Both the position numbers and the translations under genes were made by a program. A stretch of 64,000 nt of DNA from Escherichia coli (GTDB lineage Bacteria > Pseudomonadota > Gammaproteobacteria > Enterobacterales > Enterobacteriaceae), in assembly GCF_003334405.1 (NCBI RefSeq), contig NZ_QOWM01000002.1; one strand, written 5' to 3'. The notes beneath the pieces were generated by a model. It made no database searches. It worked only from the letters and a program-made list of their open reading frames with translations, and was not told the origin of the DNA. Of this stretch, positions 22,874 to 30,036 are shown piece after piece (positions within the stretch are counted from its first letter, which is position 1; each line of letters opens with the position of its first letter).

Positions 22874-22898
22874 ATTCTGCAGACACTGTCTGCAGAAT
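22874..22898. repeat. Palindrome copy A: attctgcagac-act-gtctgcagaat (11 bp arms)
   Basis: Perfect inverted repeat read directly in the 59 bp gap between the convergent nanQ and yhcG genes. It belongs to the same family as the copies at 23635-23739 and 30012-30036. Confidence 0.85.
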
Positions 22899-22913
22899 TC
22901 GAAACCGCTGAAA

Positions 22914-24041
22914 TTAACGGCGTCTATAGCCTTCCTCTAGCACCGCCTGTGTTCGAACGAGTTCATCTGCGAGTCGTTTCTCATCAGGTAGTTGCATCTT
23001 ATATTCGCTTGCCAGAACGGTGTTAGGCAAACCTGCCAGAGCATAATGCGCTTCTCCGGCTCCTTTCTCTGCACAGAGAACCAGACCGATGGGCGGATTT
23101 TCATCCGGTAGCGTCCAGTGCTCTTTGGCGTAGTTGAGATACATATTCATCTGTCCGGCATCGCTATAGCTGAATTTGCCCACTTTTAGATCGACGATTA
23201 GCAGGCAGCGTAAATGGCGGTGGAAAAACAGCAGATCGACACGAAACCAGTTGTCATCAATGCGTAACCTTCGCTGCCGACCAACAAAGGCAAAATCATC
23301 CCCAAGTTCCAGCATGAAATCCATCAGGTGGTTGATCAGCGCCTCCTCAAAATCGGATTCTGAATATTCATCTTTCAATTCCAGAAATTCGAGCACAAAG
23401 GGATCGCGTATCGCCTGTTGCGGAAGAATATGCGTCTCGGCAGGAGCGTGTTGTTGCAGCATGGCTGATTTGTCATGTGACAGTAGTGTCCGCTCATAAA
23501 ACTGGGTCGCAATTTGCCGCTCTAGCTGGCGAACAGACCAGCCACAGCGGAGCGTCTCTTTTTCATAAAAGCTGCGGGCGTCAGCGTTTTTAACGGAAAG
23601 TAAACGGACGTAGGTGGACCTGGGCAAGGGGAAAGATTTGGCAGACAGCGTCTGCCAAATCTTTGCCGATGGGAATTCTGCAGACGGTGTCTGCGGAATT
23701 CCCAATGGTGTTAATTCGCCAGACATTGTCTGGCGAATTTCAACATGTTGAAAAAAGAGGTAAAAAAGCCTCATTTGGCGTAAGTTTTTTGCAGAGAACC
23801 CACGCTTATACCTTAGACATAAATCCTTTGATAGTCGCTTGATTAGCTGCGCACCATACGCAGCCCTGGCCTCGCCACCTTGTTCAAATTCGACAATTCG
23901 TCGGCCAATTTCCTGGTACGTCGCGGTCATTAACGCGTTAACGCTACGTACCGTTTCCGTCCGGGCGCTATCGACCAGATGAATAATACCGTCGTGGATT
24001 TGCTGGTAGCCTGCTGTGGTTCCTTCTGAGAGCGATTCCAT
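22914..24041 (-). CDS. yhcG: DUF1016 / PD-(D/E)xK nuclease-superfamily protein YhcG
   Basis: 375 aa. The C-terminal half has a nuclease-like core (...RVDLLFFHRHLRCLLIVDLKVGK...), giving a D...D-x-K arrangement. Confidence 0.9.
   Translation of the reverse strand: MESLSEGTTAGYQQIHDGIIHLVDSARTETVRSVNALMTATYQEIGRRIVEFEQGGEARAAYGAQLIKRLSKDLCLRYKRGFSAKNLRQMRLFYLFFQHVEIRQTMSGELTPLGIPQTPSAEFPSAKIWQTLSAKSFPLPRSTYVRLLSVKNADARSFYEKETLRCGWSVRQLERQIATQFYERTLLSHDKSAMLQQHAPAETHILPQQAIRDPFVLEFLELKDEYSESDFEEALINHLMDFMLELGDDFAFVGRQRRLRIDDNWFRVDLLFFHRHLRCLLIVDLKVGKFSYSDAGQMNMYLNYAKEHWTLPDENPPIGLVLCAEKGAGEAHYALAGLPNTVLASEYKMQLPDEKRLADELVRTQAVLEEGYRRR
23635..23739 (-). repeat. In-frame 3 x 39 bp tandem repeat inside yhcG, each unit with a palindromic core
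   Basis: The cores are 23713-23739 (aattcgccagac-att-gtctggcgaatt), 23671-23703 (gggaattctgcagac-ggt-gtctgcggaattccc, one mismatch) and 23635-23661 (gatttggcagac-agc-gtctgccaaatc). Their centres are exactly 39 nt apart. They encode IRQTMSGELTPLG / IPQTPSAEFPSAK / IWQTLSAKSFPLP. Confidence 0.9.
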
Positions 24042-24225
24042 TATCTGTCCCTTTATATGGAGCTAAGTTGAATAATGGAATGAGCTATACTCTGGGGGGT
24101 GAGCACTGAACAATTAAGAACAGCGTATTACATTTACTTTCCCCAAGATATGCGAAGAGCTTTCCTGAAACATTAACCGATCGTATAAAACGAATGCCTG
24201 ATAGTACTCCTGTCCGGCATTGTTA

Positions 24226-24942
24226 TCACAAGTAGACTACGCTTATCACAGCTTTCCCATCAAGTTCGATTTTTTCTGAACCGCCTAAATCATTCGCGAT
24301 AGATGCGCTCACCTGAAGCGGTATAATGGCGTTCGTTACAGGAGTTGGGGTTGTTTCACCTGGTTTTACAAAGGTGTAATAATAGCTTTGATCGACTGCA
24401 AGCGGATAAGCGGTGAGCGTTTGCCATGCTCTTTTTTGCCCTGTTATGACGGCATCTGCACCTGCTATTGATACAGCTAACGTCTGGCTACCATTGCTGG
24501 CACTAATGTTGTTGCTATCAATTAACACGGCATAACTACCGATATTTTTATTATCTTTTGTTTTCCCTAAGCCGAATAAGCGCGTTGTCTGGCTAATATA
24601 ACCTCCGCCATTTAAGGTATATTTTACACCACTCTGACCCCCACTATCTTTTCCGGTGGTCATACTATCCATTCGTGTATCACGAGCGGTAATCGCAATG
24701 CCGGTAGCGGATTCGCAAGTTATAGTCATATTAATATTACGTGTTCCAATCTGTGTGTAGTGCTGCGTTGAAAGTCTATTGACTGAATGACTACCGAAGT
24801 TAACAACTCCGCCGTTGCTTAGTATTGGAGTACAAGCTGCAGCTTCCAGAGTCACCTTAACGTCAATTGATACTCTATCAGCGGCTTGCGCTGACATGGC
24901 AAAAAAGGCACTTCCGGCAATCAGTAATTTTACATTGTTCAT
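24226..24942 (-). CDS. yhcF: DUF1120 fimbrial-like secreted protein YhcF (paralog of GltF)
   Basis: 238 aa with a signal peptide. The conserved Cys pair and the C-terminus (IELDGKAVISVVYL) parallel GltF (IKLDGNVTISVQYL). Confidence 0.88.
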   Translation of the reverse strand: MNNVKLLIAGSAFFAMSAQAADRVSIDVKVTLEAAACTPILSNGGVVNFGSHSVNRLSTQHYTQIGTRNINMTITCESATGIAITARDTRMDSMTTGKDSGGQSGVKYTLNGGGYISQTTRLFGLGKTKDNKNIGSYAVLIDSNNISASNGSQTLAVSIAGADAVITGQKRAWQTLTAYPLAVDQSYYYTFVKPGETTPTPVTNAIIPLQVSASIANDLGGSEKIELDGKAVISVVYL

Positions 24943-28556: not shown

Positions 28557-28727
28557 TTAAATTAAAACTCCTGTAATAATGATAAATAACGCAGAAACAT
28601 ATTGTTAATATATGTTATGCACTGTTTGCGATGAGATTGATTAAGACAGACCATGTCATAGGGCATAATCTGTCCGAGTTATAGCTAACTGGTTAATGCG
28701 TAAAAATAAAAACTGTATTACAAGTTC

Positions 28728-29492
28728 TTATAAATACTGAACGCTGATAGTGACGTTACCATCCAGTTTGATCGTTTCATCAGAACCAAGAATAGTATTG
28801 TCATTTACCGCAGCATCAATCAGTAACGGGAAGGTGACCGCTGTAATGGCAACAGGTGTCAGTTCCCCTGTTTTTGCAACAGAATAACCGCGCTCGATTG
28901 CTGAGCAACTTGTCAGCGAGCAGAATGCGCCATTAGATGAGGCTTTCCATGTGGGGGTCGCTGCTGACCAGTGGTCAGTTTGAATCAGGTCGACAGGAAT
29001 TTCACCTGTATCGTCCGCCGCGTGAATCCCACCATTAGACCTGTCAATACCAATGGATGCAGCGCCAATTTTTTGTCCATTAGGCGCAGAACCTAAACCA
29101 AAGGCGTTTTTCGTTCCCTTCATATCTACGAGAGTATCATAAGCTTTTTCAATATAGGATGTGTCGTTTAACGCTACAATGGTCGACTGACGGTTATCCT
29201 TGGAGGTTACAGCAATTAGCGTTGGTGCTGTGCAGGTTATATTTAATGTGCTGTTTTTGCGGCCCAGTTGAACCAGTTTATTACTTTTACCGGTCGGATT
29301 CAGCGCACTGTTATGATGTTTCCCATAGTCAACAATGCCGCCGCCCGTAACAACTGGGGTACATGCACCAGGGGTATACTCGCCGATGATAGTTAATTCT
29401 GTATCAGTTGAATCTGTTGCCATGGCACTGAATGCTGCAACAGAAAGTGCTGCACAAATAGCAGCTGTTGTGAGGTTCTTTTTGAAAAACAT
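28728..29492 (-). CDS. gltF: DUF1120 fimbrial-like protein GltF, likely the first gene of the yhc chaperone-usher cluster
   Basis: 254 aa, MFFKKNLTTAAICAALSVAAFSAMA..., a paralog of YhcF. Confidence 0.92.
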   Translation of the reverse strand: MFFKKNLTTAAICAALSVAAFSAMATDSTDTELTIIGEYTPGACTPVVTGGGIVDYGKHHNSALNPTGKSNKLVQLGRKNSTLNITCTAPTLIAVTSKDNRQSTIVALNDTSYIEKAYDTLVDMKGTKNAFGLGSAPNGQKIGAASIGIDRSNGGIHAADDTGEIPVDLIQTDHWSAATPTWKASSNGAFCSLTSCSAIERGYSVAKTGELTPVAITAVTFPLLIDAAVNDNTILGSDETIKLDGNVTISVQYL

Positions 29493-30011
29493 ATGAACAT
29501 ATCCTTAATAACAAATTTATTTTTTAAAATAAAAAGCTGAAGCAGTATATATATCTGTTTGTGAATGTAAATAAATAACTCGTTCAGAAATAGCCAACTT
29601 GCTGGGATGTATTTATTTAATGAATTTTATAGTTACGATCATGTGAATAATAAGGTGCTGGTGAGGTGGTTTGTGGTGATAATTATTCATTACATGAATG
29701 TTTGCGCTGAAAAATAGGAAAATATATAGATAATTAAGGATAATATATTGGTTTTTTATATTCATATTTTGTATATTAATATCGAGACAATTTACATGGA
29801 ATGAAAAGACTGAATAGCTTGCAGAATCGGTATTGTCAGAGGTGTTAACAAGTAATTGAGACGGATTGTAAATGAGAAATTGCTTGATGTGCTTCACTCA
29901 TCAGACTTGGTGAACAAAGCACAATTTATTGAAAATTATCCCTATTATAGGAAAGGTCAAACGCTCATGCCGCATTTGCCAGAAAACAACGCGCACTTCG
30001 TCAGTAATTTG

Positions 30012-30036
30012 ATTCGCCAGACACAGTCTGGCGAAT
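30012..30036. repeat. Palindrome copy E: attcgccagac-aca-gtctggcgaat (11 bp arms)
   Basis: Perfect inverted repeat read directly, 16 nt beyond the gltD stop codon. It belongs to the same family as the yhcG copies. Confidence 0.85.

Follow-up and report, generated by a model that had tools for sequence, protein, structure and literature searches.

We analysed a 64,000-nt stretch of Escherichia coli DNA (contig NZ_QOWM01000002.1 of assembly GCF_003334405.1, hereafter the window) in which a short palindrome occurs three times within the nuclease gene yhcG and twice outside it, as orphan copies that we call A (past yhcG) and E (past gltD). The two orphans are probably 3′ stem-loops, resembling repetitive extragenic palindromic (REP) sequences, that double as deletion endpoints and were seeded from a hairpin in the coding region. 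The evidence comes from the haplotypes of the junction between the nan and gltBD operons, from a mapped 3′ end of the gltBD mRNA, and from a hairpin found at the same position in many genes of the YhcG/DUF1016 family.

We propose the following course of events. A palindrome of ~25–29 bp is conserved at the nucleotide level in YhcG/DUF1016 genes, within a stretch encoding a variable and poorly structured linker. In Escherichia the unit would have multiplied within yhcG to between one and three tandem 39-nt units, and two copies would have come to stand outside the gene, each 15 nt past a stop codon (those of yhcG and gltD), taking positions where other haplotypes or relatives have an ordinary GC-rich hairpin. 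There A and E would act as 3′ stem-loops on RNA and, like the internal copies, as places where DNA recombines and breaks, being repeats nearly identical to one another and able to fold back. The 7.1 kb block between A and E would have been lost by recombination or slippage from one to the other, leaving one copy; other rearrangements end at the base of internal copies. The outcome of these rearrangements is seen in the haplotypes, and several independent endpoints coincide with palindromes; the enzymology we infer.

Palindrome copies in the window

Degenerate search. The pattern ATTCNSCAGACNNNGTCTGSNGAAT, with up to three mismatches allowed, matched at exactly five places in the window (starting at 22874, 23636, 23675, 23714 and 30012), against a chance expectation of 0.01. 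The palindrome follows the pattern ATTnnnCAGACnnnGTCTGnnnAAT. An earlier model reading of the letters (the sequence-only reading) had reported the three copies inside yhcG and exactly two more, as found here, and its translations of A and E, ILQTVSAES and IRQTQSGEF, are correct. The features of the locus are as follows.

22874–22898, same hairpin on both strands: copy A, ATTCTGCAGACACTGTCTGCAGAAT, a perfect palindrome with 12-nt arms, ATTCTGCAGAC-ACT-GTCTGCAGAAT
30012–30036, no strand assigned: copy E, ATTCGCCAGACACAGTCTGGCGAAT, with 11-nt arms, ATTCGCCAGAC-ACA-GTCTGGCGAAT
23636–23738, minus strand: three tandem 39-nt units in yhcG with one palindrome each, at 23636–23660, 23675–23699 and 23714–23738
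22914–24041, minus strand: yhcG, a PD-(D/E)XK nuclease gene of the DUF1016 family and proposed source of the palindrome family
22390–22854, plus strand: nanQ (yhcH), last gene of the nan operon, converging on yhcG, or on gltD where the block is missing
24171–30051, minus strand: fimbrial/gltF island, with yhcF (24226–24942), yhcE (24939–25490), yhcD (25481–27697), yhcA (27882–28556) and gltF (28728–29492)
29493–30011, minus strand: AT-rich spacer in the gltD-side part of the island, followed by copy E and a 15-nt linker
30052–31470, minus strand: gltD, whose transcript ends at copy E

Copy A occupies the 59-nt gap between the convergent stop codons of nanQ (22852–22854) and yhcG (22914–22916), 19 nt from the former and 15 nt from the latter, and copy E begins 15 nt beyond the gltD stop (30052–30054). 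The tandem units of the window encode KIWQTLSAKS, GIPQTPSAEF and EIRQTMSGEL. Pfam confirms the gene names: nanQ matches DUF386, yhcG matches DUF1016_N and YhcG_C, gltD has the GltD domains, and the fimbrial genes and gltF match DUF1120, usher and PapD.

The 64 kb contain just 12 perfect hairpins whose arms reach 9 nt or more (~1.3 in shuffled sequence). Four are members of this family, and among the rest several are ordinary terminators, made up of A-tract, GC stem and T-tract. Hairpin energies predicted for the copies run from -15.6 to -23 kcal/mol, with the fold of copy E at -21 to -23 kcal/mol.

Copies elsewhere in E. coli. Across 5426 complete E. coli genomes, BLAST with the concatenated palindromes as query placed near-identical copies at this locus only, except that a few have an additional place; this query detects near-identical copies only, so diverged members may exist elsewhere. 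The family is in this sense not scattered, a point on which the sequence-only reading had proposed a motif search. A K-12 derivative gave six BLAST places, which we read as three loci counted on both strands.

Haplotypes of the nan-gltBD junction

The same 5426 genomes fall into four junction types, with counts derived from BLAST coverage classes and not from per-genome alignments.

T1 (the window, K-12): full block; about 1123 genomes
T2: nanQ, copy A, yhcG, a stretch of about 180 nt that includes a GC hairpin, and gltD, with neither island nor copy E; about 2423 genomes
T3: like T2, except that yhcG is cut short and runs into a foreign segment of 472 nt; about 717 genomes
T4: nanQ, a single palindrome, gltD; 947 genomes
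Other: unclassified; about 200 genomes

The whole 7.1 kb from A to E is missing from the 947 T4 genomes, about one in six. Their single copy, ATTCGCCAGACACTGTCTGGCGAAT, is identical in the four T4 genomes that we compared; its right flank is that of E, and its left flank is homologous to that of A with an 8-nt indel. The palindromes therefore delimit real breakpoints, as the sequence-only reading had supposed, since genomes without the block keep one palindrome between the left flank of A and the right flank of E. Its proposed comparison of synteny at the gltD-nan junction divides on this point: the T4 endpoints lie on palindromes, but T2, the commonest type, lacks only the island, with breakpoints at the gltD stop codon and at about 24171 rather than at A or E.

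Internal copies mark further endpoints. In T3, internal palindrome 1 is where homology to yhcG sets in, at its first base, and the DNA beyond is foreign. The number of units per yhcG allele in E. coli ranges from one to three. A hybrid unit in one allele, EIRQTLSAKS, is what a crossover at the centre of the palindrome would produce, and an allele without a stop codon reads through into copy A.

The T3 segment (E. coli strain 22AR0434, L162:856-1327) is single-copy, replaces the 3′ two-thirds of yhcG with its 472 nt, and is present in about 717–726 E. coli genomes. It holds a 101-aa open reading frame (ORF) annotated as 'transposase', for which no Pfam, NCBIfam or PADLOC match was found.

A hairpin within YhcG/DUF1016 genes

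YhcG and its linker. The YhcG protein matches DUF1016_N and the YhcG_C PD-(D/E)XK nuclease domain in Pfam with E-values of 7.5e-38 and 9e-57, and its best PADLOC match is the candidate defence family PDC-S02 (E-value 3.4e-131). The segment encoded by the palindromes is a linker: AlphaFold2 gives residues 100–134 a predicted local distance difference test score (pLDDT) below 50, between confident helices, and the linker varies across the family from zero to three units. The DUF1016 family, a listed candidate defence family, comprises 21,194 cluster representatives at 50% identity.

Pattern scan. The scan for ATTnnnCAGACnnnGTCTGnnnAAT took in viral contigs (39 stretches) and a single genome of each prokaryotic species (at least 120 stretches, E. 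coli not being among those listed). At least 174 matches were obtained, from Bacteroidota, Planctomycetota, Acidobacteriota, Firmicutes, Proteobacteria, archaea and phages, and 119 among the 174 matches listed lie in ORFs homologous to YhcG. The three free arm positions of the pattern are fully complementary in 90 of the 174 listed, where chance would give 1 in 64; among 109 distinct copies within genes, Watson-Crick pairing at these positions is 69%, 92% and 93%. The encoded peptide shifts along with the stem (IQQTVSVK, ICQTLSGK, IFQTPSGK, IPQTLSAE).

Palindrome-independent sample. A second sample was chosen by C-terminal nuclease-domain peptide motifs instead of by the palindrome, giving 74 distinct DUF1016 genes, all from viral contigs. 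A hairpin of at least 11 of 12 pairs stands in the linker-encoding window of 50 of the 74, at the same position in the gene; a window of the same size in the nuclease domain gave 0 of 74, and shuffled linker sequence 1 of 74. We relied on the control window and the shuffles rather than on a covariance model or a formal pair count, since choosing the best-pairing site would make such a count circular. The stems differ greatly among genes (CAGAC/GTCTG, GAACGC/GCGTTC, GTCCGC/GCGGAC, GTCGTATC/GATACGAC, GGTCAAC/GTTGACC and others); AATT or CAATTG at the outer end recurs in many of them, as does a centre like CACTG. In some genes the peptide is unlike IxQTxS and the DNA symmetry is retained.

The pairing is visible in the proteins as well. 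Among 150 representatives at 50% identity, a first base of T, C or G in codon 2 goes with K, E or Q, respectively, six residues later; 32 cases obey this rule, and in 10 the base goes with another of the three residues. One yhcG gene holds three units with different, individually self-complementary triplets, from which we infer within-strand pairing or self-templated correction rather than recognition by a dimeric protein.

The coding-region hairpin of YhcG/DUF1016 genes is apparently undescribed so far. Rfam, at gathering and at permissive thresholds, gave no family match, only generic hairpin-like matches below threshold, and the literature on yhcG, DUF1016, PDC-S02, the YhcG nuclease and the literal palindrome sequences yielded no description of the palindrome.

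A site of the encoded nuclease? The hairpin could be a cis site of the nuclease that its own gene encodes. YhcG/DUF1016 would recognise or cut the folded palindrome, and the orphans and breakpoints would be footprints of this activity; the palindrome would be a conserved structured element and the cognate site of a structure-specific nuclease, serving self-regulation, self-recognition or gene movement. This would be a partnership like that of REP sequences and REP-associated tyrosine transposases (RAYTs), built on a PD-(D/E)XK enzyme whose gene is also a candidate anti-phage defence gene. Hairpin and nuclease gene are linked across phyla and phages, and in two rearrangements (the T3 junction, and a deletion in another Escherichia described below) the joint to non-homologous DNA coincides exactly with an end base of a palindrome, first or last, so that these junctions look like breakage at the hairpin base and not like recombination between repeats. 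Orphan-type matches occur in other taxa too: among the matches listed, ~40 of the 55 outside recognised genes look genuine, mostly in non-coding DNA. We nevertheless consider it unlikely that the nuclease acts on this site. An orphan next to the gene is uncommon (1 of 75 loci), and the single palindrome did not vary in the four sampled genomes that had lost yhcG. Foldseek with the AlphaFold2 model returned generic PD-(D/E)XK matches only, all with E-values of 1e-3 or worse, and a PDB sequence search with YhcG found no relative; we found no supporting literature.

Further observations on the family. The one viral locus among the 75 with an extra copy (L212) has a second copy of its own hairpin stem 84 nt upstream of the start of the DUF1016 match. 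A viral contig (L023) carries two identical short DUF1016 fragments with the palindrome, at 4740 and 6062, 1.3 kb apart, as if flanking an insert, and in several other taxa a homologous ORF restarts ~15–125 nt after the palindrome. Many partial PADLOC PDC-S02 profiles end at the first palindrome, at YhcG residues ~101–115 (window 23700–23740), which suggests that annotated fragments of the family often break there. An antisense or divergent small RNA (sRNA), G0-10703, has been reported over the 5′ region of yhcG (about window 24050–24250), and sequencing of RNA 3′ ends (Term-seq) gives a strong end upstream of yhcG at MG1655 3367641 (minus strand; 67,634 reads).

What the orphan copies are

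Arms. The arms of A and E (ATTCTGCAGAC, ATTCTCCAGAC, ATTCGCCAGAC) are identical to those of units inside other yhcG alleles. T1, T2, a cryptic Escherichia clade and a non-coli Escherichia all have copy A between the same flanks, and its arm changes are compensated: K-12 has CTGCAG/CTGCAG, another E. coli CTCCAG/CTGGAG and another Escherichia CAGCAG/CTGCTG. An E-like copy stands 33 nt past gltD in a non-coli Escherichia, in a spacer otherwise without obvious similarity. Where T1 has copy E, T2 has a GC-rich hairpin. In Pseudocitrobacter and Citrobacter koseri, the gap between yhcG and nanQ holds an ordinary terminator and no copy A.

Flanks. Decayed yhcG fragments were considered as the origin of A and E and rejected, since similarity to yhcG ends at the palindrome edge. 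When six-frame translations of the sequences flanking A and E were compared with the DUF1016 profile, the sole match was the palindrome-encoded peptide, at no more than 4.7 bits; local alignments of the same flanks to yhcG with the palindrome masked gave nothing significant; and extension from the palindrome edge yielded at most 6 nt of similarity, that for the E-like copy of another Escherichia. We take A and E to be copies of the palindrome unit alone and not recognisable gene relics. The suggestion of the sequence-only reading that they are relics of yhcG-like sequence thus stands for the arms, which match yhcG units, and falls for everything beyond the palindrome.

Neutral debris? A and E might still be debris of decayed yhcG-like sequence kept perfect by template switching, in which case the breakpoints would be those of mere short repeats. 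The identity of the arms with internal units of other alleles fits this, as do the confinement of near-identical E. coli copies to one locus in the BLAST search and the compensated changes, which templated correction predicts. We think it improbable all the same, because E has been kept in another Escherichia species within a dissimilar spacer and coincides with a mapped mRNA 3′ end, because both copies lie exactly 15 nt past a stop, where other lineages have GC-rich hairpins, and because the surroundings of A and E show no homology to yhcG.

Direction of change

yhcG at the site. The order gltB-gltD-yhcG-nanQ, as in T2, is found in C. koseri, Pseudocitrobacter and the cryptic Escherichia clade, and a Salmonella diarizonae contig has a single-unit yhcG pseudogene directly after gltD. 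The outgroup order makes yhcG ancestral at the site and T4 a deletion, and the simplest order of events would be T2 to T1 to T4.

The island. The fimbrial/gltF island (about 24171–30051) is separate from yhcG: its insertion site lies between the gltD stop codon and the sequence upstream of yhcG, and it has a palindrome (E) at its gltD-side end and none at the other. The most frequent E. coli haplotype lacks it, as do relatives outside Escherichia. A diverged island occupies the same site in other Escherichia; in a non-coli Escherichia gltD is 92–93% identical and GltF 61%, and the layout runs from an E-like copy after gltD through the island and a yhcG pseudogene to copy A with the same flanks. 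The island must accordingly be old. The internal deletion of that pseudogene begins at the last base of its palindrome. A further Escherichia lineage (gltD 94% identical) has no yhcG, and yhcF is followed there by 14 nt, a palindrome, 10 nt and the annotated nanQ stop.

One inserted module? The 7.1 kb block is evidently composite, an ancestral yhcG with copy A plus a separately inserted island, yet it is lost as one A-to-E unit. The sequence-only reading had considered the block one old insertion bounded by palindromes, and this idea is not supported, given the ancestral position of yhcG in outgroups and the composite make-up. In its fuller form, in which the block is a mobile or inserted module with palindrome ends and the single-palindrome genomes are the empty target site, it can point to the look of those genomes, with one palindrome between the left flank of A and the right flank of E. 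We hold it to be very improbable: outgroups place yhcG between gltD and nanQ, so its absence is derived; the yhcG-side end of the island has no palindrome; A and E are perfect palindromes of different types rather than hybrids of an att crossover; and Pfam finds no integrase or transposase in the block. A transposon or insertion element is likewise a poor description of a block with no recombinase, with a palindrome at one end of its island and with an ancestral yhcG-containing state.

RNA 3′ ends

gltBD. The Term-seq data of Adams et al. 2021 (PMC7815308, supplementary file 1) list a primary 3′ end of gltD at MG1655 3360660, which maps to minus-strand position 30008 of the window, 4 nt beyond the E stem. 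Steady-state gltBD mRNA therefore ends 4 nt past E. To judge by where it stands in the file, the entry appears to belong to the minimal-medium sheet. We took the 3′ end as base 51 of the published 61-nt string, a rule under which the end of SgrS falls on its terminator's last T. The same source reports a bicyclomycin-sensitive region, indicating Rho-dependent termination, at MG1655 3361307, inside gltF.

Protective stem-loops. Dar and Sorek 2018 (PMC6061677) describe Rho-terminated E. coli transcripts that end just past stable stem-loops without a U tract, and describe such stem-loops as protecting against PNPase and RNase II. Copy E has the same features, being stable and without a U tract, with a 3′ end at +4 and a Rho region downstream. 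We suggest that E is a barrier to 3′ exonucleases or a non-canonical stop, on a transcript that Rho would terminate further downstream. By analogy, copy A may play the same role for yhcG and nanQ.

Intrinsic terminators. A canonical intrinsic terminator was rejected as a description of A and E: no T run follows either stem on either strand, and a consensus terminator scan lists neither. That they are ordinary Rho-independent terminators, for which stable hairpins just past stops and the 3′ end just after E might speak, is scarcely credible given these two results and the Rho-dependent region further downstream in gltF. The hairpin terminator, suggested for copy A by the sequence-only reading, finds support in modified form at E, where the RNA ends 4 nt past the stem.

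Two side observations concern the AT-rich spacer between gltD and gltF. A second Term-seq end, of the 'orphan' class with 1859 reads, lies at window 29885 (minus strand), 123 nt downstream of the gltD end, and there is a promoter-like site at 29571–29544.

Points weighing against the proposed explanation

Several findings count against A and E as REP-like 3′ stem-loops that serve as deletion endpoints and derive from the coding-region hairpin. As to the deletion, the step from A to E rests on parsimony. The single T4 copy has the spacer ACT and copy E of the window has ACA, which does not suit a one-step deletion; together with the 8-nt indel in the left flank, this means that the T4 event is old or had more than one step. 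As to origin, the similarity of A and E to yhcG ends at the palindrome. Template switching in near-palindromes could keep the arms perfect without selection. Extra hairpin copies beside DUF1016 genes are, at one of the 75 viral loci, rare enough to make the Escherichia arrangement lineage-specific.

As to RNA, the stem mismatches of in-gene copies lean towards G-U pairs on the antisense strand (24 against 13 on the sense strand in the 74-gene sample, and 30 against 5 in the 109 in-gene copies), so the in-gene hairpin is not obviously an mRNA structure; it may act at the DNA level or in antisense RNA. The Term-seq table (PMC7815308) lists no 3′ end near copy A. The position of the gltD end depends on the base-51 rule, which was checked against the SgrS terminator alone, and the legend of the 61-nt strings says 40 nt upstream.

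Comparison with known systems

REP sequences and bacterial interspersed mosaic elements (BIMEs). Like these, A and E are short palindromes outside genes, past stops and often between convergent genes. REP/BIME sequences also form 3′ stem-loops that define and protect mRNA ends, a likeness that extends to E only, with its 3′ end mapped at +4; they also serve as recombination or deletion endpoints, and they have a tie to a particular nuclease or transposase gene. The differences are several. The pattern ATTnnnCAGACnnnGTCTGnnnAAT bears no relation to the REP consensus given in PMC7967276, an imperfect palindrome of ~35 nt. There are five copies at one locus here as against hundreds dispersed through a genome, the gene is a PD-(D/E)XK nuclease and not a RAYT (Y1 transposase), and the main copy lies within the nuclease coding sequence instead of beside the gene.

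Rickettsia palindromic elements (RPEs). As cited in PMC4316617, these are palindromes inserted in frame into protein-coding genes. Both are palindromic DNA that is translated and tolerated in a permissive region, here a low-confidence linker. RPEs are however ~100–150 nt long, are confined to Rickettsia and occur in many unrelated genes, whereas the present unit is ~25–29 nt (39 nt with linker codons) and occurs at one position in one gene family of bacteria, archaea and phages.

Protective 3′ stem-loops. Copy E resembles those of PMC6061677 in its stability, its lack of a U tract, the RNA end a few nucleotides downstream and the Rho region further on. They are normally unique local sequences, while E is a copy from a repeat family of a neighbouring gene, and a protective role for it would be by analogy.

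Palindromes as hotspots. Palindromes and near-palindromes are hotspots of mutation and deletion, through template switching and through slippage at hairpins. Symmetry kept by paired changes, deletions ending at hairpin bases and a variable number of tandem units all agree with this. It is a general process and does not explain a hairpin at one position of one gene family across phyla.

The analysis explains a common structural polymorphism beside two housekeeping operons, with four junction types among the genomes sampled, and identifies the element at the 3′ end of gltBD mRNA. It also exposes a hairpin kept by compensated changes within a very large family of nuclease genes. If the hairpin is a functional site, it would give a handle on what the uncharacterised YhcG/DUF1016 nucleases act on, and it would be one of the few instances of a protein linker whose sequence is dictated by nucleic-acid structure.

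Other features of the window

The window has yhcE (24939–25490) without IS5; records of the MG1655 type match there in two pieces around IS5, so the window derives from a K-12-like sequence that lacks this element. Rfam finds the ArcZ sRNA at 39984–40091 and the greA leader at 61736–61857, as expected for this chromosome region.

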